A stretch of DNA of 64,000 nt from Escherichia coli (GCF_003018255.1 NZ_CP027440.1), one strand, 5' to 3'; numbered from the stretch's first letter, positions 6,176-17,289 are shown. Program-made: numbers and translations. The notes: a model not told the origin generated them from the sequence alone.

Positions 6176-8608
6176 ATGAGTGTGATTGCGCAGGCAGGGG
6201 CGAAAGGTCGTCAACTGCATAAATTTGGTGGCAGTAGTCTGGCTGATGTGAAGTGTTATTTGCGTGTCGCGGGCATTATGGCGGAGTACTCTCAGCCTGA
6301 CGATATGATGGTGGTTTCCGCCGCCGGTAGCACCACTAACCAGTTGATTAACTGGTTGAAACTAAGCCAGACCGATCGTCTCTCTGCGCATCAGGTTCAA
6401 CAAACGCTACGTCGTTATCAGTGCGATCTGATTAGCGGCCTGCTACCCGCCGAAGAAGCCGATAGCCTCATTAGCGCCTTTGTCAGCGATCTGGAACGCC
6501 TCGCGGCGCTGCTCGACAGCGGTATTAATGATGCGGTGTATGCGGAAGTGGTGGGCCACGGTGAAGTGTGGTCGGCGCGCCTGATGTCTGCGGTACTTAA
6601 TCAACAAGGGCTGCCAGCGGCCTGGCTTGATGCCCGCGAGTTTTTACGCGCTGAACGCGCCGCGCAGCCGCAGGTTGATGAAGGGCTTTCTTACCCGTTG
6701 CTGCAACAGCTACTGGTACAACATCCGGGCAAACGTCTGGTGGTGACCGGGTTTATCAGCCGTAACAACGCCGGTGAAACGGTGCTGCTGGGGCGTAACG
6801 GTTCCGACTATTCCGCGACACAAATCGGTGCGCTGGCGGGTGTTTCCCGCGTAACCATCTGGAGCGATGTCGCCGGGGTATATAGTGCCGACCCGCGTAA
6901 AGTGAAAGATGCCTGTCTGCTGCCATTGCTGCGTCTTGATGAAGCCAGCGAACTGGCGCGTCTGGCGGCCCCCGTTCTTCACGCCCGTACTTTACAGCCA
7001 GTATCCGGTAGTGAAATCGACCTGCAGCTGCGCTGTAGCTACACGCCGGATCAAGGTTCCACGCGCATTGAACGCGTGCTGGCCTCCGGTACTGGTGCGC
7101 GTATTGTCACCAGCCACGATGATGTCTGTTTGATTGAGTTTCAGGTGCCCGCCAGTCAGGATTTTAAACTGGCGCATAAAGAGATCGACCAAATCCTGAA
7201 ACGTGCTCAGGTGCGCCCACTGGCAGTTGGCGTGCATAACGATCGCCAGTTGCTGCAATTTTGCTACACCTCGGAAGTGGCCGACAGTGCGCTGAAAATC
7301 CTCGACGAAGCAGGATTACCCGGCGAACTGCGTCTGCGTCAGGGGCTGGCGCTGGTGGCGATGGTTGGGGCGGGCGTCACCCGTAACCCGCTGCATTGCC
7401 ACCGCTTCTGGCAGCAACTGAAAGGCCAGCCGGTCGAGTTTACCTGGCAGTCCGATGACGGCATCAGCCTGGTGGCAGTACTGCGCACCGGCCCGACCGA
7501 AAGCCTGATTCAGGGGCTGCATCAGTCCGTCTTCCGCGCAGAAAAACGCATCGGCCTGGTATTGTTCGGTAAGGGAAATATCGGTTCCCGCTGGCTGGAA
7601 CTGTTCGCCCGTGAGCAGAGCACGCTCTCGGCGCGCACCGGCTTTGAATTTGTGCTGGCAGGCGTGGTGGACAGCCGTCGCAGCCTGTTGAGCTATGACG
7701 GGCTGGACGCCAGCCGTGCGCTAGCCTTCTTTAATGATGAAGCCGTCGAACAGGATGAAGAGTCGCTATTCCTGTGGATGCGTGCCCATCCGTATGATGA
7801 TTTAGTTGTGCTGGACGTTACTGCCAGCCAGCAGCTTGCTGATCAGTATCTCGATTTCGCCAGCCACGGTTTCCACGTCATCAGTGCCAACAAACTGGCG
7901 GGAGCGAGCGACAGCAATAAATATCGCCAGATCCACGACGCGTTCGAAAAAACCGGGCGTCACTGGCTGTACAACGCCACCGTCGGCGCAGGTTTGCCGA
8001 TCAACCATACCGTGCGCGATCTGATCGACAGCGGCGACACTATTTTGTCGATCAGCGGGATCTTCTCCGGCACGCTCTCCTGGCTGTTCCTGCAATTCGA
8101 CGGTAGCGTGCCGTTTACTGAACTGGTGGATCAGGCGTGGCAGCAGGGCTTAACTGAACCTGACCCGCGTGATGACCTCTCCGGCAAAGATGTGATGCGC
8201 AAGCTGGTGATTCTGGCGCGTGAAGCGGGTTACAACATTGAACCGGACCAGGTGCGTGTTGAATCACTGGTGCCAACCCATTGCGAAGGTGGAAGCATCG
8301 ACCATTTCTTTGAAAATGGCGATGAACTTAATGAGCAGATGGTACAACGGTTGGAAGCGGCCCGTGAAATGGGGCTGGTGTTGCGCTACGTGGCGCGTTT
8401 CGATGCCAACGGCAAAGCGCGAGTAGGCGTGGAAGCGGTGCGAGAAGACCATCCGCTGGCATCACTACTACCGTGCGATAACGTCTTTGCCATCGAAAGC
8501 CGCTGGTATCGCGATAATCCGTTGGTGATCCGCGGGCCAGGTGCAGGGCGCGACGTCACCGCCGGGGCGATTCAGTCGGATATTAACCGTCTGGCGCAGT
8601 TGTTGTAG
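6176..8608 (+). CDS. metL: Bifunctional aspartokinase II / homoserine dehydrogenase II
   Basis: 810-aa ORF starting MSVIAQAGAKGRQLHKFGGSSLADV, 2 nt after the metB stop. Confidence 0.95.
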   Translation: MSVIAQAGAKGRQLHKFGGSSLADVKCYLRVAGIMAEYSQPDDMMVVSAAGSTTNQLINWLKLSQTDRLSAHQVQQTLRRYQCDLISGLLPAEEADSLISAFVSDLERLAALLDSGINDAVYAEVVGHGEVWSARLMSAVLNQQGLPAAWLDAREFLRAERAAQPQVDEGLSYPLLQQLLVQHPGKRLVVTGFISRNNAGETVLLGRNGSDYSATQIGALAGVSRVTIWSDVAGVYSADPRKVKDACLLPLLRLDEASELARLAAPVLHARTLQPVSGSEIDLQLRCSYTPDQGSTRIERVLASGTGARIVTSHDDVCLIEFQVPASQDFKLAHKEIDQILKRAQVRPLAVGVHNDRQLLQFCYTSEVADSALKILDEAGLPGELRLRQGLALVAMVGAGVTRNPLHCHRFWQQLKGQPVEFTWQSDDGISLVAVLRTGPTESLIQGLHQSVFRAEKRIGLVLFGKGNIGSRWLELFAREQSTLSARTGFEFVLAGVVDSRRSLLSYDGLDASRALAFFNDEAVEQDEESLFLWMRAHPYDDLVVLDVTASQQLADQYLDFASHGFHVISANKLAGASDSNKYRQIHDAFEKTGRHWLYNATVGAGLPINHTVRDLIDSGDTILSISGIFSGTLSWLFLQFDGSVPFTELVDQAWQQGLTEPDPRDDLSGKDVMRKLVILAREAGYNIEPDQVRVESLVPTHCEGGSIDHFFENGDELNEQMVQRLEAAREMGLVLRYVARFDANGKARVGVEAVREDHPLASLLPCDNVFAIESRWYRDNPLVIRGPGAGRDVTAGAIQSDINRLAQLL

Positions 8609-8621
8609 TGATTATTGAACA

Positions 8622-8648
8622 AAAGCTGGCAGTTGCCAGCTTTTGTTG
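8622..8648 (+). terminator. Rho-independent terminator after metL
   Basis: Hairpin aaaagctggcagttgccagctttt followed by a T-rich tail. Confidence 0.6.
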
Positions 8649-8824
8649 TCACCTCTAAACCACCTCCTGCGGAGGTGGTGATTGATTGTCATTTTGCCTT
8701 TGGTCAGTGCCCCGGTAATAAGGGGGCTTTTGTGTTGAGCGATGAATTCACAGTGTGAATGGTGAAGTTATTTATGACAATTACAAAATGGCATTAAGTA
8801 AAAATATCTAAAACATCACCTGAT

Positions 8825-9685
8825 TTAAAATTGATAACCAATAGTAGTATAGGTTCCCCATCCTGTGTTTTTTAATTCAAATGGACCATCTCCGAAGTTA
8901 ACTTTCTCCCCAGCATTCCATTGTCCACCGTTGTGAAAATAACGTAGTGTAAATGCAAATTTCCAGTGTTCATATAGCAGGGAAAGGATATGGCTTGAAG
9001 CAATAGCATTACTGGTTCGTTTATTATTGTGTGATTTGTCCGCAAGATCGGAGCCAAAATCAAAGTTAGTAAAACTATTGTATACCAATCGCCCTCCGAA
9101 TAAATGGGTAAGAGGAATGCTATATTTTATTTTGAATCGATATCCGTCCCATTCATTTTCATTAGCGGCACCATAGTTTTGCCACTGATACTTGGCGTAT
9201 ATATTGGCAGAAAGCTTAATTGGTAGACCCGTGTCGATATCTGTACCAAGCCCCATATACCATGTACTTTGCCGGGATGACTGGTTGTCACCCATATCAT
9301 AGACATAGTTGTTTGCAATGAACCATTCTTTAAAAGGGCCGAACGCAAGATTTAATCCGGTCAATTTGTCAATGGAAAACCGAGGTTCTATTTCCGTAAA
9401 TAGTGGTGAGCCCTCATCCCAGATCCCAACATCATAGTGACTGCCGACGCCAAAGAATTTTGGTAGATCAACATAACCATAAAAATCAAACCAGTCTTTT
9501 CTTCCTGCTACAGTATATTCAGGGTAGAGGTCGTTAGTCAGTCTTGGGCCAAAGCGAGAGTCTGTGCGACCAATGACATTCAAGCTTTGATGTAACCAGC
9601 TTTCATCAATTTTAATTTCCTGAGCGTTTCCAATGCAAGGTATTAATAGAATGGATAAAGCTATCCCGTGCTTTTTTATACACAT
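8825..9685 (-). CDS. Tsx-family nucleoside-specific outer-membrane channel paralog
   Basis: 286-aa ORF with signal peptide; long colinear blocks match recalled Tsx ([98 protein letters not shown]; C-terminal aromatic GYQF). Confidence 0.85.
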
Positions 9686-9724
9686 AAATATATCTCATTA
9701 TTTATTGTTGATTTAGAGAAAAAT

Positions 9725-9752
9725 AATGCCATTCAGTGAATGAATGGCATTA
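9725..9752 (-). terminator. Hairpin terminator between the first nucleotidase gene and the Tsx-like gene
   Basis: Inverted repeat aatgccattcagtgaatgaatggcatt with T-run on the minus strand; a TATAAT-like hexamer overlaps it. Confidence 0.45.
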
Positions 9753-9763
9753 TAATTTTTTTA

Positions 9764-11383
9764 TTATTTGCTAACGTCCACCCGCATTTCATTTACCTGT
9801 GCAGGCGTAATCTTGTGGCCTTTCTTCAAATAATCGATCACGACATCGGACATGTTATTTCCGGCGCGGACCTGAACATTTTTCCCTTCTTTGAATGCCA
9901 GAAAACCATCGCCCCCCAGTGCAAGGAAAGTCGTTGTTGCAACATGGTAAATATTCGTATCAACGATCTCTTCACCATTAATTTTAAAAGATACTATGCG
10001 CTGACCTACTGGTTTCTTCGGGGTATAGCGCATTTCTGCGCCTTTTGACATTTGCAGGATGCCATTGGTAAGCGATGCCCCGTGTTCCAGTAGGTTACGC
10101 AGATCCTTACCGCTGAGATCCATTTCAGTAAGTTCATTCTTGAAGGGGAATGTACTGGTAATGTCGCCAAAGGTAATCGTGCCTGCATTTATATCCGCAC
10201 GTAAGCTGCCGGAGTTTATCAATGCAATCTGTGCAGTCGGTGCAGCGACAAGCATTGCATCGGTAAACAGGTTGCCAAGTTGCGATGACTCACCGTAGGC
10301 ACGAGTTAATGCAATCGATGATTCACCGACTGGTTGGCGTACAAGATCCGCCAGTTTTTTATTCCAGCCATTGATAACTTTTTGTGTGGTTGGATCAGGT
10401 ATCCATTCATCGGCATAAACCGTTTTCAGCTCAAAGCTCTTCACTTTATGAGTACGAGCTGTAGGGTTGACATCAAGGATTAATTTACCAATATCGATAC
10501 CGCCACTGTCAGTCGAAAGGATTAAGGTGTTGCCGACTTTGATTGGTTCTGGCGTTCCGACGTGGGCATGCCCGGTAATCAGAATATCCAATCCTTTCAC
10601 CTTGCTTGCGGTTTGAATATCTTTATCAAGAGCGCGTCTAACATCTGTATTGCCAATGCTGGACTGACGCGCCGGTACGCCTTCATGAACCAGCGCCACG
10701 GTGAGGTCAACCTTATCACGTAACTCATCGATATAATGCTGCAAATACTTCACTTCATCACGTGCTTCAATCCCCTGATTCTTGAGGGTCGCGGAAGATT
10801 TATCAAATCGGTTATTATTGTCATTATCGAGTCCCTGGAGAGAGAGCTCCGAGACCGTGTCATTAAATGCAAATACGCCGTGTAGCCCAACAATACCAAT
10901 CTTGATGCCATCTTTTTCCAGGATGGTGTAGGGCTTGTTCCAGAAGGGTTTCTCACTCTCTTTATGATAAACATTGGCTAATAAAACAGGGAAATTCGCT
11001 TTGCTTAATTGTCGGAGGGCATTATCCCAGCCATGGTCAAACTCATGATTACCGATTGATACTGCGTCAAAAGGCATGGTATTCATAATATCAATTATTG
11101 CTTCGCCCTTTGTCAGGCTACTGATATATGGCCCGGTGAAATAGTCTCCAGCATCAAAATAAAAGGTGGCTTTATTTTTGGCTTTCTCTTGTTTTACTAA
11201 CGTGGATATATTGGCAAAGCCACCAATGTCGCGTTTTCCGTCTGCGACATACGGTACTTTATAGGAATCCACATGAGCGTGAAGATCATTGGTATAAATA
11301 ATCGTGACATCCTGCGCCATAACTGAGGTCGAAAAAATAGTCAGCAATGTTGCGGCAAATAAAGTACGCTGCGCTGTTTTCAT
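9764..11383 (-). CDS. Exported bifunctional metallophosphatase/5'-nucleotidase (UshA/CpdB family), paralog A
   Basis: Signal peptide MKTAQRTLFAATLLTIFSTSVMA; metallophosphatase motifs [30 protein letters not shown] plus C-terminal 5'-nucleotidase domain. Start set at second ATG (11383), 6 nt after AAGGA; track used 11389. Confidence 0.85.
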   Translation of the reverse strand: MKTAQRTLFAATLLTIFSTSVMAQDVTIIYTNDLHAHVDSYKVPYVADGKRDIGGFANISTLVKQEKAKNKATFYFDAGDYFTGPYISSLTKGEAIIDIMNTMPFDAVSIGNHEFDHGWDNALRQLSKANFPVLLANVYHKESEKPFWNKPYTILEKDGIKIGIVGLHGVFAFNDTVSELSLQGLDNDNNNRFDKSSATLKNQGIEARDEVKYLQHYIDELRDKVDLTVALVHEGVPARQSSIGNTDVRRALDKDIQTASKVKGLDILITGHAHVGTPEPIKVGNTLILSTDSGGIDIGKLILDVNPTARTHKVKSFELKTVYADEWIPDPTTQKVINGWNKKLADLVRQPVGESSIALTRAYGESSQLGNLFTDAMLVAAPTAQIALINSGSLRADINAGTITFGDITSTFPFKNELTEMDLSGKDLRNLLEHGASLTNGILQMSKGAEMRYTPKKPVGQRIVSFKINGEEIVDTNIYHVATTTFLALGGDGFLAFKEGKNVQVRAGNNMSDVVIDYLKKGHKITPAQVNEMRVDVSK

Positions 11384-11423
11384 TCGCATTCCTTGTTAAA
11401 TAAATTGACTGATAAATGAGATT

Positions 11424-12974
11424 TTATTTGGCGACGTCCATGACTCGTTTAGTTAAGTCTGGGGTGACAGGTTTATGATTTTTGAAATAATCGATGATAG
11501 ATTCCGCCGAGGTTGTTCCCGGTATCGTCTTCACATTTTTTCCATTCAAAAATGCTTCAAAACCGTCACCACCACTGGCACAAAAGGAGTGCGTGGCAAT
11601 ACGATATGTTTGATTATCTTCCACGGGTTTGCCGTTAATGGTGAAAGAGATTAACCGTTGGTTGAGGGGTTTTTTGCTGTCATAGACAACCGCAACACTT
11701 TTAGAAACTTGTAACACACCGTTAGTTAGATTGGTTGCATGCGTCATCAATGATTTGAGATCGCGGCCCGTCAAATCCATCTCGATGAGGTCATTATTAA
11801 AGGGGAATGTGCTAATAACATCTCCCAGTGTGATATCGCCTTTAGGAAAATCAGCTCGAATCCCACCGCTATTTTGAAATCCGGCAACGGCATCAGGTGT
11901 TTTTTCCATCATTGCATCAAGAATAAGGTTGCCGGTAGAAGAGGAACTACCATACTCACGTGTTAAAACTACGGGAGAATGGCCGACAACTTCCTGTGTT
12001 ATTTTGTTAAGCTTTGCACTCCATTTATCAATAGTATTTTGAACGATGGTGTCAGGTTTAAATTGATCTGCAAAGATGGTGATTAACTCACCATTATAAC
12101 TGTCAATTTTCTTCGTTTTCGGATTGTAATCAAGCACAAGTTTTCCGATGTTGGTGCCGTATGCATCGGTAGATACAATTAATGTGTTATTAACTTTTAT
12201 TGGTTGCGGTGTTCCGACATGTGCGTGACCGGTAATTAAGACATCAACACCATTCACTTTTTTAGCTGTCTCAATATCTGCCTGTAGTAGCCGCTCCACA
12301 TCTTTACTACCAAAGCTTGATTGACGCGCCGGGACACCTTCGTGAATTAGCAAAACGGTAATGTCGACTTTACCTTTTAATTCTGCAAGTGCTTTATTTA
12401 AATATTTAATTTCGTCTCTGGCTTCTACGCCTTCACGTGCTTTTGCCGCGACTGTATCATAGAAAGCGAATGCGCCATGCAATCCAATCACACCAATCTT
12501 TAAACCATCTTTTTCGATAATGGTCCACGGATGATCCCAAACTGGTTTATTCGTATCGGTGTAGTAGATATTTCCCAGCAGAATGGGGAATTTTGCTTTT
12601 GATAACTGAGACACCATATTGGGCACACCGTGATCGAACTCGTGATTACCAACAGACACCGCATCAAAGGGCATAGTGTTCATGATATCAATAATAGCCT
12701 CACCTTTGGTCAGGGTGCTGATATACGGCCCGGTAAAATAGTCGCCTGCATCAAAGAAAAACACATCTTTGCTTTTTTTCTTCGCTTCATTAACGATGCC
12801 TGAAATATTAGCCATACCACCTATAAGTCTGTTCTTATCAACAGCGATGATTTTTGCTGGATTGACATGTGCGTGAATGTCATTCGTATAATAAATAGTA
12901 ACGTCCTGAGCTAGAACACTGTGAGAAAATATCACGCCGAATATGACTGATAATGTTGTAAATACAGTTTTCAT
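11424..12974 (-). CDS. Exported bifunctional metallophosphatase/5'-nucleotidase (UshA/CpdB family), paralog B
   Basis: Signal peptide MKTVFTTLSVIFGVIFSHSVLA; motifs [30 protein letters not shown]; AGGAGG SD just upstream (alternative start 12977). Only 34 bp from paralog A, so probably co-transcribed. Confidence 0.85.
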   Translation of the reverse strand: MKTVFTTLSVIFGVIFSHSVLAQDVTIYYTNDIHAHVNPAKIIAVDKNRLIGGMANISGIVNEAKKKSKDVFFFDAGDYFTGPYISTLTKGEAIIDIMNTMPFDAVSVGNHEFDHGVPNMVSQLSKAKFPILLGNIYYTDTNKPVWDHPWTIIEKDGLKIGVIGLHGAFAFYDTVAAKAREGVEARDEIKYLNKALAELKGKVDITVLLIHEGVPARQSSFGSKDVERLLQADIETAKKVNGVDVLITGHAHVGTPQPIKVNNTLIVSTDAYGTNIGKLVLDYNPKTKKIDSYNGELITIFADQFKPDTIVQNTIDKWSAKLNKITQEVVGHSPVVLTREYGSSSSTGNLILDAMMEKTPDAVAGFQNSGGIRADFPKGDITLGDVISTFPFNNDLIEMDLTGRDLKSLMTHATNLTNGVLQVSKSVAVVYDSKKPLNQRLISFTINGKPVEDNQTYRIATHSFCASGGDGFEAFLNGKNVKTIPGTTSAESIIDYFKNHKPVTPDLTKRVMDVAK

Positions 12975-13017
12975 CATCCCTCCTGGATAGGGTGTGTTAC
13001 ATTTGTTGAATTATTTA

Positions 13018-13040
13018 AATAAAAGACACATCGTGTCTTA
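13018..13040 (-). terminator. Hairpin terminator downstream of the cysteine-rich protein gene
   Basis: aaagacacatcgtgtctt hairpin with T-tract on the minus strand, in an AT-rich spacer. Confidence 0.4.
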
Positions 13041-13206
13041 TTTTATGTAAGCATAGTTCAGAAAAGTATTGTGTGATCTTAGTAACAAATAATGTTATTA
13101 ATTAAACATTGACCATGATTATATTTCACGGTCATACATTTATATATTTAATTAAATGAAAGGTAGTGTTCTCTCTTAATTTATGGTCGTTTGTCGAGTG
13201 TATTGA

Positions 13207-14331
13207 CTAACAAGATGGAGTGAGCGATTCATTGTATTTTAACGCCAGTGAGGTCAGCATTTGTGTTACGCGACCTGCGGATAATAACGCGCTTTGGGTA
13301 AAGTCGTGTTGGTCTGTCAGCCATGTGATAAAACAACGACTGGTTGCCAGAGAAACATTTGCGCCCCTTTCTAAGCAGGCTCCCGTGAGTAGGCAGACCA
13401 TCTTGCAGTTATTCCCCTGCTCCCAGCGCTGCCACTGATTTTGCCACCAACCATGGTATGTCGTTCCCTTAAAATGCCAGGGCGTATCAGCGTTACTGTC
13501 ACTGATTTCTTCTTCTACGAACCAAAGTTCACCTTGTTGTTGGCGGAACTGATCTGCCCAGGCTGTAATAATTGCGCCTCTTAGAAAACATTCGTGTGAA
13601 ATAATATGCGTTTTGACATCTGGATAGCGGATTTTCAGTATTCTGAAATGCCCGTGTGCCGTGATAACCGGGCGTAGTATGGCTCCCTTACCGTTGCGCT
13701 TGAGTACAGCACTGCCATACTGAATTTCATCGAACTGGCTCCGGCGCAAGAATTGCGCTTCACGCATATCTACCTTCTGCACGATATCGCGATGGTGCAT
13801 AGTTGGTTCTGTGTTGCCCTTGTAACTGTACCGCAGACTGTCTCCTGTCTGATGTTGCGTATAATTCGTGGAGAGATGAAGAATGTTGCCACGAGTGGCG
13901 TCAAGACTGACTAAAACATACAGTTTTTGTACTGCGCTGGCCCCTTGAAAGGGTATGAACAGTTGAACGGTTTCAATGGCCTGGGGATGCGTAATTTCTT
14001 TCTGATACTGTTTAGGCGTCCAGACTTTTTTGCAGTTACGGCATTGAATGCGTTGCGAACCCTGTGGATTGTGACCATAACAAATCATGTCTGTGCCATA
14101 ACATACCGGGCAGAAATGACCCTTCTCCGAGGCCCACGTAGATAAGTGAACTGACAACCAGTCACGAAATTGTTGCTCGTCAAACAACGGCGGGTAACTG
14201 CCACATGCCCGACAGTGCAGTGCCGGATAACCCAGTTTATAGTCTGGCCAACTGTAATCTTCCGATGAGGCCAATCCCAAATTTCGGCAACCGAACGTTT
14301 TACAGGCATTAATCGTAAACAGAGTCGACAT
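13207..14331 (-). CDS. Hypothetical cysteine-rich protein with multiple zinc-ribbon-like CxxC pairs; no signal peptide
   Basis: 374-aa ORF with ATG start; N-terminal third has C10/C15, C40-x2-C43, C74-x2-C77, C84, C97-x2-C100 with GHNP between the last two pairs; C-terminal part His/Trp-rich. No family recognised by eye. Confidence 0.6.
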   Translation of the reverse strand: MSTLFTINACKTFGCRNLGLASSEDYSWPDYKLGYPALHCRACGSYPPLFDEQQFRDWLSVHLSTWASEKGHFCPVCYGTDMICYGHNPQGSQRIQCRNCKKVWTPKQYQKEITHPQAIETVQLFIPFQGASAVQKLYVLVSLDATRGNILHLSTNYTQHQTGDSLRYSYKGNTEPTMHHRDIVQKVDMREAQFLRRSQFDEIQYGSAVLKRNGKGAILRPVITAHGHFRILKIRYPDVKTHIISHECFLRGAIITAWADQFRQQQGELWFVEEEISDSNADTPWHFKGTTYHGWWQNQWQRWEQGNNCKMVCLLTGACLERGANVSLATSRCFITWLTDQHDFTQSALLSAGRVTQMLTSLALKYNESLTPSC

Positions 14332-14338
14332 ATATCAC

Positions 14339-14360
14339 CAACGATTTCACAAGGTCGTTG
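14339..14360. promoter_or_regulatory. Candidate operator palindrome in the divergent promoter region
   Basis: CAACGA-N10-TCGTTG inverted repeat immediately upstream of the Cys-rich ORF start and about 100 bp upstream of paralog C. Confidence 0.3.
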
Positions 14361-14463
14361 ATTTTGTCCGGCAACTATCCCCTGCAGATGTGATTACTCT
14401 CACATAAATAAGTCTTTCAGAACGTAATGTAGCAATCCTTTATCTCACTGAAAGGGATTGTTT

Positions 14464-16017
14464 ATGAAAATTAAAATACTTGCTGCGGGTATCGCATTAA
14501 CACTGCCGTTCTGGGCTTGCGCTAAAGATGTCACTATTATTTATACCAACGACCTCCATGCGCATGTAGAACCTTATAAAGTGCCGTGGATCGCTGACGG
14601 TAAACGGGATATTGGCGGCTGGGCAAATATCACTACGCTGGTTAAGCAAGAAAAAGCAAAAAATAAAGCGACATGGTTTTTTGATGCGGGCGACTATTTT
14701 ACCGGGCCATATATCAGCAGCCTGACCAAAGGTAAGGCTATTATCGATATTATGAATACTATGCCGTTTGATGCCGTCACGATAGGCAACCATGAATTTG
14801 ACCACGGCTGGGACAACACATTATTACAGTTGAGTCAGGCAAAATTCCCGATTGTGCAGGGCAATGTTTTTTATCAGAACAGCAGTAAATCATTCTGGGA
14901 TAAGCCCTATACCATCATCGAAAAAGACGGTGTGAAAATAGGCGTTATAGGTTTGCACGGTGTATTTGCCTTTAATGACACAGTATCTGCTGCCACGCGA
15001 GTGGGTATTGAGGCGCGTGATGAAATTAAATGGCTACAACGTTATATCGATGAACTTAAAGGCAAGGTTGATTTGACCGTCGCCCTGATCCATGAAGGTG
15101 TTCCGGCCCGCCAGTCCAGTATGGGAGGCACAGATGTGCGTCGCGCGCTGGATAAAGATATTCAGACGGCAAGTCAGGTGAAAGGGCTGGATATTTTGAT
15201 CACCGGACATGCACATGTGGGTACGCCGGAACCGATTAAAGTCGGCAATACGCTCATCCTCTCCACTGACAGCGGCGGGATTGATGTGGGCAAACTGGTT
15301 CTCGACTACAAAGAGAAGCCGCATAATTTTACGGTGAAAAACTTCGAGCTTAAAACCATTTACGCTGACGAGTGGAAGCCCGATCCACAAACGAAACAGG
15401 TGATCGACGGCTGGAATAAAAAGCTTGATGAAGTGGTGCAACAAACGGTGGCGCAATCGCCGGTTGAATTAAAACGTGCCTATGGTGAATCGGCTTCCCT
15501 CGGGAACCTGGCGGCTGACGCTTTACTGGTAGCGGCGGGTAAAAACACCCAATTGGCGTTAACCAACTCTGGCGGCATTCGCAATGAGATCCCCGCAGGG
15601 GCGATCACGATGGGCGGCGTCATCAGTACGTTCCCGTTCCCCAACGAACTGGTGACGATGGAACTCACGGGTAAACAATTACGCAGTCTGATGGAACACG
15701 GCGCAAGTTTAAGCAATGGCGTTTTACAGGTATCGAAAGGCCTGGAAATGAAGTACGACAGCAGCAAGCCGGTTGGTCAGCGGGTAATCACACTGACTCT
15801 GAATGGCAAACCCATTGAAGATGCGACGGTTTATCACATTGCTACTCAGAGTTTCCTTGCTGATGGTGGAGATGGTTTTACCGCCTTTACCGAAGGGAAA
15901 GCGCGTAACACAACGGGCGGTTATTACGTTTATCACGCGGTGGTTGATTACTTCAAAGCGGGCAACACCATTACGGATGAACAGCTCAACGGTATGCGCG
16001 TGAAGGATATCAAATAA
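14464..16017 (+). CDS. Exported (possibly lipoprotein) bifunctional metallophosphatase/5'-nucleotidase (UshA/CpdB family), paralog C
   Basis: Track start 14458 is TTG; ATG at 14464 follows AAGGGA. Signal peptide [22 protein letters not shown] (possible lipobox Cys); motifs [30 protein letters not shown]. Confidence 0.85.
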
Positions 16018-16327
16018 AAGTGCGCACTGAATTGACTCAACTGTTTGTTACCCGTTGATTGCGCAGATCCTGTATTCGGCCTACGCGAGGGCGCAGGCCG
16101 AATCAGATGCCTTAGCATCACCATCCGGTGGCAGGACGTTGTTTTTCGAATTAGCCCAGGTGTCGCTGTGTTGTCAGAATATGAGTCAAAACGTGCGAGG
16201 TGGATTGTGCTATAGAGAAATCTTTTATCGCCTCTAATTAAGATGAGTTTTTTTCATCTTCCCTGATTTTTCCTCACCATCATTGGTTATTTTTCGGTTG
16301 ACGCCCTTCGGCTTTTCCTTCATCTTT

Positions 16328-16359
16328 ACATCTGGACGTCTAAACGGATAGATGTGCAC
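16328..16359. promoter_or_regulatory. Met boxes (MetJ operator) of the metF promoter
   Basis: Tandem AGACGTCT-like repeats acatctgg acgtctaa acggatag atgtgcac about 40-70 bp upstream of metF. Confidence 0.5.
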
Positions 16360-16395
16360 AACACAACATATAACGATAAGCGATTGATGAGGTAA

Positions 16396-17289
<894 letters not shown>

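Follow-up and report, generated by a model that had tools for sequence, protein, structure and literature searches.

The question raised by this locus is why an Escherichia coli chromosome keeps three intact genes for related nucleotidases in one region. We analysed it in a stretch of 64,000 nucleotides (GCF_003018255.1, NZ_CP027440.1), here called the window, for which a first-pass annotation had reported three paralogous, exported UshA-family nucleotidases lying side by side, and had proposed sub-functionalisation or dosage as the cause of their maintenance.

An accessory island between metL and metF

The three genes belong to an accessory island (8609..16248) that stands in the metL-metF spacer in place of the approximately 200 bp found in K-12. 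The alignment to the K-12 spacer stops at window position 8607 and resumes at 16249, and this ~7.6-kb segment has a low GC content (0.42-0.48 versus 0.52-0.57 in the flanks). Paralog A (9764..11383, minus strand, 539 aa) and paralog B (11424..12974, minus strand, 516 aa) are in tandem with 40 nt between them, and paralog C (14464..16017, plus strand, 517 aa) is divergently oriented. All three ORFs are therefore present with the sizes and positions first reported, but they are not strictly side by side, since the gene of a 374-aa 'cytoplasmic protein', named here hyp (13207..14331, minus strand), separates B from C and is the divergent partner of C. The likely start codons of A, B and C are slightly internal to the ORFs originally drawn, in agreement with PGAP and with better RBS spacing.

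The island also contains a paralog of the Tsx-family outer-membrane nucleoside channel (8825..9685, minus strand, 286 aa), which belongs to NCBIfam NF011686 (493 bits, cut-off 311). In CFT073 this gene is c4894 (PMC5956150). It is a pseudogene in two of nine sampled genomes with the full island, indicating that the channel is dispensable; the coding sequences of A, B and C are intact and of equal length in all nine. A terminator scan detected a hairpin with a 13-bp stem followed by a T-run (9723..9753, minus strand) between the A stop and the tsx start, which may be terminator- or attenuator-like. The channel, hyp and the CRP-type sites described below had been overlooked in the first-pass annotation.

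Among 5426 complete E. coli genomes, the full form of the island was found in 658 and the form with hyp and C in 1838, the remaining genomes having the empty site; C occurs without A and B in 1180 genomes. In an altered order, Tsx and nucleotidases of the A, B and C types recur in Enterobacter, Citrobacter, E. albertii and another E. coli, and at least eight genera carry the hyp-C pair at the metL-metF site.

The island is a probable nutrient-scavenging module whose genes were already annotated and which is already in the literature. A recent article (PLoS One 2026, PMC12928451) describes it in the APEC strain BEN2908 as 'GR 31', with a Tsx and three UshA-domain ORFs, gives 67% identity between the channel and Tsx, and independently proposes the scavenging hypothesis. 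In the passages of it consulted here, hyp, the age of the paralogs, the orthogroups, the CRP sites and the lipoprotein question do not appear. The earlier annotation had been made unaware of this description and of the solved structure of C.

Catalytic and substrate-binding residues

RefSeq gives A, B and C the same product name, 'bifunctional metallophosphatase/5'-nucleotidase', and Pfam detects Metallophos (PF00149) and 5_nucleotid_C (PF02872) in each of these predicted exported dimetal phosphoesterases of the 5'-nucleotidase superfamily. Pairwise identity is 54% for A-B, 64% for A-C and 58% for B-C, B being the most divergent copy and C the most conserved.

In an alignment to E. coli UshA, the metal ligands D41, H43, D84, N116, H217 and H252 and the catalytic H117-D120 pair (UshA numbering) are all kept in A, B and C, which upholds the claim of a full catalytic motif set; loss of metal ligands, the mark of a pseudo-enzyme, was looked for and seen in none of the three. 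Equivalents of the substrate-pocket residues are also kept, namely the Arg of GGxR (R410), the two stacking Phe (F429 and F498) and the ribose-binding Asn and Asp (N431 and D504). From these residues, A, B and C would be expected to act as phosphohydrolases on nucleotides. The position of UshA Q254 is occupied by His in the three paralogs, and the phosphate-binding Arg (R379 in UshA, R354 in CD73) is replaced by Tyr with an Arg two residues upstream, so that phosphate binding may differ from that of textbook 5'-nucleotidases. Paralog A has an extra Asn/Asp-rich insert of 20 aa following FNDTVSEL, which is also present in both A orthologues with sequence recovered (E. coli SCPM-O-B-8794 and E. 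albertii).

Paralog C corresponds to PDB 3IVD/3IVE (1121 bits, five mismatches across residues 21-519), a structural-genomics entry entitled 'Nucleotidase' for the E. coli CFT073 protein c4898, in complex with a pyrimidine nucleoside; A and B are without a structure. Our literature search found no biochemical paper accompanying 3IVD/3IVE and no published enzyme assay, localisation or expression results for A or B.

Relationship to known nucleotidases

The assignment to the UshA family is correct at the superfamily level only. The paralogs share with UshA the two-domain architecture, the dimetal site, the His-Asp dyad, the GGIR Arg, the Phe-Phe base clamp and Sec export, but they are about 24% identical to it, differ at Q254 and at R375/R379 (Leu/Tyr with an Arg between), and score 160, 169 and 152 bits against a cut-off of 600 in the UshA model (NF007109). 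Moreover, UshA is a core gene elsewhere on the chromosome, whereas A, B and C are accessory. Apart from the self match, the best matches over the full length are the Thermus thermophilus 5'-nucleotidase 2Z1A (4e-46), vertebrate CD73 (about 1e-32) and the 5'-nucleotidase half of Bacillus subtilis YfkN (NF006934, 185-196 bits); identity to these proteins is only about 25-30%, and further differences are the GPI anchor of CD73 and the wall-anchored fusion architecture of YfkN. A, B and C are not orthologues of UshA, CpdB, NadN or SoxB, and they belong to a 5'-nucleotidase subfamily separate from UshA and CpdB.

It is unlikely, in our assessment, that at least one copy performs another chemistry, as a CpdB-like 2',3'-cyclic phosphodiesterase/3'-nucleotidase, a NadN-like enzyme, or a UDP-sugar or dinucleotide hydrolase. 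UshA is itself bifunctional (5'-nucleotidase/UDP-sugar hydrolase), the canonical Arg position is Tyr, and the CpdB, NadN and UshA-type models all give significant matches, but these are below threshold: 77-103 bits for CpdB (TIGR01390 and NF006938, cut-offs 883 and 486) and 123-134 bits for NadN (TIGR01530, cut-off 436). CpdB has the superfamily and the compartment in common with the paralogs, but its models align only with the N-terminal metallophosphatase domain (residues ~20-280), and in their C-terminal domain the paralogs match proteins of the 5'-nucleotidase/UshA/CD73 type. The Pfam domain NadN_nucleosid_C is found in one copy only, at best with 3.6e-3. SoxB (TIGR04486, 147-157 bits, cut-off 550) is implausible, as sox genes are absent nearby.

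Export of the three proteins

The signal peptides attributed to every paralog are supported by manual rules. The N-termini of A, B and C are tripartite, with small-x-small sites (A-x-A or V-x-A) at an equivalent position of the alignment. Each shows the features expected of a Sec/signal peptidase I substrate: a positive n-region, a hydrophobic stretch of 12-16 residues free of charges, and small side chains at -3/-1. Cleavage is predicted at SVMA/QDVT in A, SVLA/QDVT in B and WACA/KDVT in C. These rules, homology and the crystallised C protein, whose match begins at residue 21, close to the expected cleavage point, suggest export, and a periplasmic location is predicted for the three enzymes.

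The PFWAC motif of C, from which it had been proposed that C may be a lipoprotein and A and B soluble, is indeed present. Its Cys19 lies close to the end of the hydrophobic core and is preceded by Ala, which speaks for anchoring; nevertheless the Cys is at -2 of an A-x-A/K motif, a Trp occupies the -2 position of the supposed lipobox and breaks the pattern, and neither [LVI][ASTVI][GAS]C nor PROSITE PS51257-type patterns match C. The Cys is also replaced by Ser in Citrobacter and in one Phytobacter orthologue (WASA/KD), with A-x-A/KDVT invariant, and in the alignment the cleavage sites of A, B and C fall at precisely one position. With the crystallised protein aligning only from the cleavage point onward, a lipid-anchored C is hardly credible.

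Age and retention of the three copies

Synonymous sites between A, B and C are saturated. In the phylogenetic tree the paralogs form three orthogroups, each in its own clade with orthologues in other genera, and each copy is under purifying selection (dN/dS 0.02-0.05 for C, about 0.10 for A and 0.10-0.2 for B). The copies are ancient and are not recent tandem duplicates. Of the two explanations first offered for their maintenance, these data favour sub-functionalisation and argue against dosage. That three copies with an equal job are retained for greater enzyme output is very unlikely: the three enzymes do not differ in their catalytic or core pocket residues, and A and B are in tandem, 40 nt apart, but identity is only 54-64% with saturation of synonymous sites, other genera have separate orthologues of each copy, C stands alone in the 1180 genomes mentioned above, and it has its own predicted divergent promoter.

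Residues fixed in one orthogroup or another flank the pocket motifs NSGGIR, FPF-x-N and F-x-x-x-GGDGF. The identity of the pocket core counts against a partition of substrates among A, B and C, and only the differences in the second shell suggest one. If substrates are distinct, the island would explain how some E. coli lineages, commensal as well as extraintestinal, harvest a wider range of nucleotides in the gut, in urine or in tissue, and a function would be assigned to a subfamily without a characterised member that extends from Enterobacteriaceae to SAR86 and Bacteroidota.

Candidate CRP control, a probable scavenging role and a less likely role in host interaction

A perfect CRP core, TGTGA-N6-TCACA, is located at 14389..14404 (plus strand), 60 nt ahead of the start codon of C. 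Of 20 orthologous upstream regions compared from other genomes, 15 keep its half-sites around a spacer that varies, and similar perfect CRP sites were found in two distant related loci. A second CRP-like candidate with one mismatch, TGTGATCTTAGTAACA, lies at 13072..13087 (plus strand), about 105 nt ahead of the start codon of B. Judging from these motif matches, transcription of the island genes is probably cAMP-CRP dependent, in which case they would be induced under shortage of preferred carbon.

We consider it probable that the locus is a variable nucleotide-scavenging island, CRP-linked, with three soluble periplasmic nucleotidases and a Tsx channel, in which the ancient paralogs partition substrates. 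In this mechanism, A, B and C would be exported by Sec and would remove phosphate from nucleotides in the periplasm, and the released nucleosides and phosphate would then be imported. The Tsx-family channel would help nucleosides, and perhaps the substrates too, to cross the outer membrane. The three copies would have been kept because their substrate preferences differ.

A role in host interaction, in which the enzymes would turn host ATP/AMP into immunosuppressive adenosine or destroy cyclic dinucleotide signals and so favour extraintestinal or gut colonisation, as likened to Staphylococcus aureus AdsA and streptococcal Nt5e/CdnP, seems to us quite improbable. The full island is carried by Nissle 1917, NU14 and APEC strains, periplasmic nucleotidase activity released from E. 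coli can make adenosine (PMC4570785), and c4894 responds to the UPEC regulator TosR (PMC5956150). On the other hand, both the hyp-C pair and the multi-nucleotidase cluster are widespread among Enterobacteriaceae of environmental or plant origin, for example Kosakonia, Phytobacter, Rahnella and Kluyvera, and more distant homologues occur in SAR86, Bacteroidota and Acidobacteriota. The enzymes are predicted to be periplasmic and not surface-anchored, with scores far below the cut-offs of the Nt5e and LPXTG models, and the CRP site and Tsx linkage suggest nutrition.

The partner gene hyp

Taken by itself, the nucleotidase trio is an unremarkable accessory metabolic module that had been annotated before, and hyp is the more original lead. 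It belongs to a small, unnamed family of Enterobacterales and Vibrionales, is under purifying selection, and combines two zinc ribbons with an RNase H-like (DDE-transposase-like) fold. The N-terminal InsA-like zinc ribbon and the RNase H-like catalytic-core fold are shared with IS1/IS1595 transposases. In contrast to these, hyp is single copy, in one place per genome in 1844 genomes, and has a fixed syntenic position across genera. A mobile IS1/IS1595 transposase was rejected, as neither multiple copies nor variable sites were seen and the metL-metF position is held in at least eight genera. No Pfam DDE domain was found in hyp, and by our reading of the alignments there is no conserved Asp on the predicted beta-1 or just after beta-4, where the first two DDE residues usually lie; the acidic residues D144, D201 and E247 are conserved at other positions.

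A palindrome, CAACGA-N10-TCGTTG (14339..14360, plus strand), lies 8 nt from the hyp start codon and is conserved across Enterobacteriaceae genera, with no second copy within the island. The zinc-ribbon, transposase-fold protein probably acts as a dedicated regulator. We propose more tentatively, as a possibility that we do not favour outright, that the hyp family derives from IS1/IS1595 and was domesticated as a regulator or obligate partner of scavenging operons, with A, B and C splitting the periplasmic nucleotide pool; in that reading the split could, for example, separate purines from pyrimidines, ribonucleotides from deoxyribonucleotides, or mononucleotides from oligo- or cyclic nucleotides. 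If true, the family would be a clean bacterial example of a transposase domesticated into a metabolic regulator.

Distant relatives of hyp adjoin nucleoside/nucleotide scavenging genes in 10 of 11 genomes, their neighbours being 5'-nucleotidase, Tsx, NupC/NupG, PNP/Udp, DeoB, adenosine deaminase or AphA-like genes. The longer relatives have an extra helix-rich segment of about 45 residues after the ribbons, a putative HTH.

The nucleotidase island between metL and metF

According to a comparison with K-12, the island spans about 8609-16248 and takes the place of around 200 bp of spacer between metL (6176-8608) and metF (16399-17289). Its genes encode a Tsx-family channel (8825-9685, minus strand), nucleotidases A (9764-11383, minus) and B (11424-12974, minus), a 374-aa 'hypothetical/cytoplasmic protein', here called hyp (13207-14331, minus), and nucleotidase C (14464-16017, plus). 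The first-pass annotation had described three nucleotidase copies side by side; the copies are real, but an unrelated gene lies inside their span, and the island extends beyond that span. The GC content of the block is 0.42-0.48, against 0.52-0.57 in the surroundings. Region 8600-16420 is 100% identical in strain JNE23-011, and its ends are matched by every complete E. coli genome. No defence-system model in PADLOC matched the five island proteins, and an Rfam scan of 8500-16500 (E<=1) detected neither a riboswitch nor any other RNA family.

The full island is present in 658 of 5426 complete E. coli genomes, including Nissle 1917, NU14 and APEC strains, and hyp together with C in 1838 of them, so that about 1180 genomes carry this pair without tsx, A and B (e.g. 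ST131 EC958 and CE10). The site is empty in the remaining complete genomes, including K-12 and O157. The coding sequences of A, B and C are intact and each keeps its length in all nine full-form genomes sampled. Two of these nine have the tsx paralog annotated as a pseudogene lacking the C-terminus (L082 441-1286; L084 4141-4986).

The CFT073 equivalents of the five genes should be c4894-c4898; C is presumably c4898, a label that goes back to the title of its PDB entry, and the labels other than c4894 and c4898 follow gene order. The tsx paralog of CFT073, c4894, was among the top genes induced by the overexpressed UPEC regulator TosR (log2 fold change 3.3 in an RNA-seq table, PMC5956150). This table was the exception in a literature search on c4898, c4894-c4897 and 3IVD/3IVE, which otherwise returned nearly only unrelated items, and the search found no biochemical study of the island nucleotidases. 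The same Tsx and three UshA-domain ORFs appear under the name 'GR 31' in a 2026 study of APEC BEN2908, whose authors propose coordinated nucleoside processing and transport (PMC12928451). The locus is annotated, one of its proteins has been crystallised and the island has already been described.

Conservation of catalytic residues and export signals

Pairwise identity among A, B and C is 54-64%, and their paralogy can still be seen in the DNA, with 70-75% complementarity between the A and C arms. Each protein contains the Pfam domain pair Metallophos and 5_nucleotid_C. Alignment with UshA of E. coli K-12 showed that no copy has lost metal-ligand residues: all of these are kept. The catalytic His-Asp pair, the GGIR Arg, the two Phe that stack on the base, and the Asn and Asp that bind ribose are retained as well; the residue roles are those of the UshA and CD73 structures. 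By alignment, where UshA (R379) and CD73 (R354) have their second phosphate-binding Arg, all three proteins have an invariant Tyr, and an invariant Arg stands two residues before it (R338/Y340 in C, at about 15475-15483). A different chemistry in one of the copies is a rival to nucleotidase activity in all three. Between metallophosphatase motifs III and IV, A carries a 20-residue Asn/Asp-rich insert (residues ~178-200, LSLQGLDNDNNNRFDKSSATLKNQ) that is missing from B and C and is found in both A orthologues with recovered sequence, from E. coli SCPM-O-B-8794 and E. albertii.

All three proteins are predicted to be exported, since their N-termini show a positively charged n-region, an uncharged hydrophobic core of 12-16 residues and small-x-small sites at the same aligned position (A SVMA|QDVT, B SVLA|QDVT, C WACA|KDVT). 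The domain, residue and signal-peptide checks thus confirm the first-pass observation of three intact, exported paralogs. A lipid anchor on C had also been suggested from the motif PFWAC, which does occur in the protein; however, Trp at -2 satisfies neither the strict lipobox nor the PROSITE-type pattern, and the Cys is replaced by Ser in Citrobacter and in one Phytobacter orthologue (WASA|KD), while A-x-A|KD is invariant. The alignment of the crystallised C protein begins only at the predicted cleavage site. Judging from these features, C, like A and B, is most likely a soluble protein.

Relationship to known 5'-nucleotidases

None of the three proteins reaches an NCBIfam equivalog cut-off: they score 152-169 bits with the UshA model (cut-off 600), 77-103 with the CpdB models (486-883), 123-134 with NadN (436) and 147-157 with SoxB (550). 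Identity with UshA is only about 24% and the CpdB models cover only the N-terminal domain, whereas the full-length matches are with YfkN-type enzymes (their 5'-nucleotidase half), the T. thermophilus 5'-nucleotidase and CD73. C is the protein of PDB 3IVD/3IVE, which are structural-genomics entries with uridine or cytidine as the presumed ligand. A, B and C form a new, uncharacterised branch within a familiar enzyme family, and the island that carries them is an ordinary accessory metabolic one. A SoxB identity was rejected, given the sub-threshold score and a context devoid of sulfur oxidation.

Divergence of the three paralogs

Synonymous divergence among A, B and C is saturated, and a neighbour-joining tree separates them into three orthogroups, all distant from UshA. 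The dN/dS values within E. coli are lowest for C (0.02-0.05), with about 0.10 for A and 0.10-0.2 for B. Fixed residues specific to the orthogroups adjoin the pocket motifs: pocket-flanking position 367 is I, Q or T, the substitution G371S gives NSGS in A against NSGG in B and C, and FPF-K/FPF-N/FPF-P and, after F464, F-LAL/F-CAT/F-LAD also differ by orthogroup. Their age, selection, intactness and pocket flanks fit a long-standing functional divergence, favouring the sub-functionalisation proposed in the first-pass annotation, and exclude recent amplification under its other suggestion, selection for dosage. That annotation described real features and, except on lipidation and dosage, read them mostly correctly. 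Redundancy of the three enzymes is the rival to divergence; it would agree with their shared catalytic residues, while the orthogroup-specific pocket flanks favour divergence. Saturated dS and the separation of the orthogroups led us to reject a recent tandem duplication.

A homologue scan with one genome per species revealed C-type genes in many Enterobacteriaceae, with proteins 87-98% identical; most of these genes are paired with hyp and located between metL and metF wherever the flanks are present. The cluster also occurs in another layout, hyp(-) C B [B'] tsx A, with every gene on one strand; it was found in Enterobacter asburiae (L008), Citrobacter (L023), E. albertii (L028) and E. coli SCPM-O-B-8794 (L024 2612-11459), and two of these genomes hold four nucleotidase paralogs. 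The signal peptide encoded by the A-type genes of this cluster is of the C type (MKIK..LPFWACA|KD), suggesting gene conversion at the 5' end. Comparison of the full and short forms (window 13207-14463 vs L002 5808-7070) uncovered a sharp recombination boundary: C shows a dS of 0.09 and 99% protein identity, whereas hyp shows a dS of 1.10 and 78% identity, its last ~70 codons having no DNA-level match.

A transposase-like partner gene

The hyp family, which the first-pass annotation did not mention, is the most interesting lead of the locus. The protein combines two zinc ribbons with an RNase H fold like that of DDE transposases; weak InsA/IS1 zinc-ribbon matches were all that Pfam returned, and PHROGs likewise gave weak zinc-ribbon matches and nothing else. 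In our own reading, made without superposition, the strands usual for the first two DDE residues hold no conserved Asp in the family. Mobile-element behaviour is absent: hyp is single-copy, syntenic across genera and under purifying selection (dN/dS 0.15-0.26). The family is small, a search of 1.84 billion proteins at E<=1e-30 yielding 62 representatives, and its longer members have an extra segment of ~45 residues after the ribbons, missing from the Escherichia branch, that looks like a putative helix-turn-helix.

We sampled the neighbourhoods of 11 distant relatives with 18-29% identity (loci L085-L093, L099-L102). For ten of them, genes for nucleoside or nucleotide scavenging are no more than two genes away, namely a 5'-nucleotidase (four cases), Tsx and a nucleotidase, NupC and PNP, NupC with adenosine deaminase and PNP, DeoB-PNP-NupG, PNP, and a porin with an AphA-like phosphatase and a class II cNMP phosphodiesterase; a contig end truncates the neighbourhood of the eleventh. 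Such associations argue strongly that hyp is a dedicated partner, most plausibly a putative regulator, and it looks like a domesticated transposase linked to nucleoside and nucleotide scavenging. A literature search on transposase-derived nucleoside regulators found nothing relevant.

Proposed regulation and function

We infer the operon layout and regulation of the island from its gene spacing and motifs. B and A are separated by 40 nt, and a perfect palindrome with a 13-bp stem and T-runs on both strands (9723-9753), between the A stop and the tsx start, may be a terminator or attenuator of B-A transcripts or part of the tsx leader. The 64-kb window holds only three matches to TGTGA-N6-TCACA with at most one mismatch, a count not above chance, and two of them lie in island promoter regions: a perfect candidate CRP site upstream of C (14389-14404) and one with one mismatch upstream of B (13072-13087). 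The former is kept in 15 of 20 orthologous regions of other genomes while its spacer sequence varies, a pattern typical of a genuine CRP site, and two distant related loci also hold perfect sites. Another palindrome, CAACGA-N10-TCGTTG (14339-14360), abuts the hyp start and is kept across genera; no second copy that would make it a shared operator occurs within the island, and no palindrome common to the distant hyp loci was seen. A generic sigma-70 scan gave no convincing promoter for C, promoter-like sites being fewer than in shuffles.

We consider it probable that the island as a whole is a scavenging module. A, B and C would dephosphorylate nucleotides arriving in the periplasm, with partly different preferences; the extra Tsx channel would speed outer-membrane passage, and the nucleosides would be taken in via inner-membrane Nup transporters. 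cAMP-CRP would turn on expression, with the transposase-derived hyp protein probably tuning it. Whether substrates are truly partitioned among the three enzymes could go either way. Manipulation of host signals by the nucleotidases is the rival to scavenging.

In genomes of Citrobacter and of Salmonella arizonae-like strains, a B-like nucleotidase (59% identity) and a Tsx channel also stand together with a hyp-family gene (24-27% identity) and a gene of the sulfatase/phosphodiesterase family, at a separate locus (L093 364-6260; L033 2460-9527; L069).
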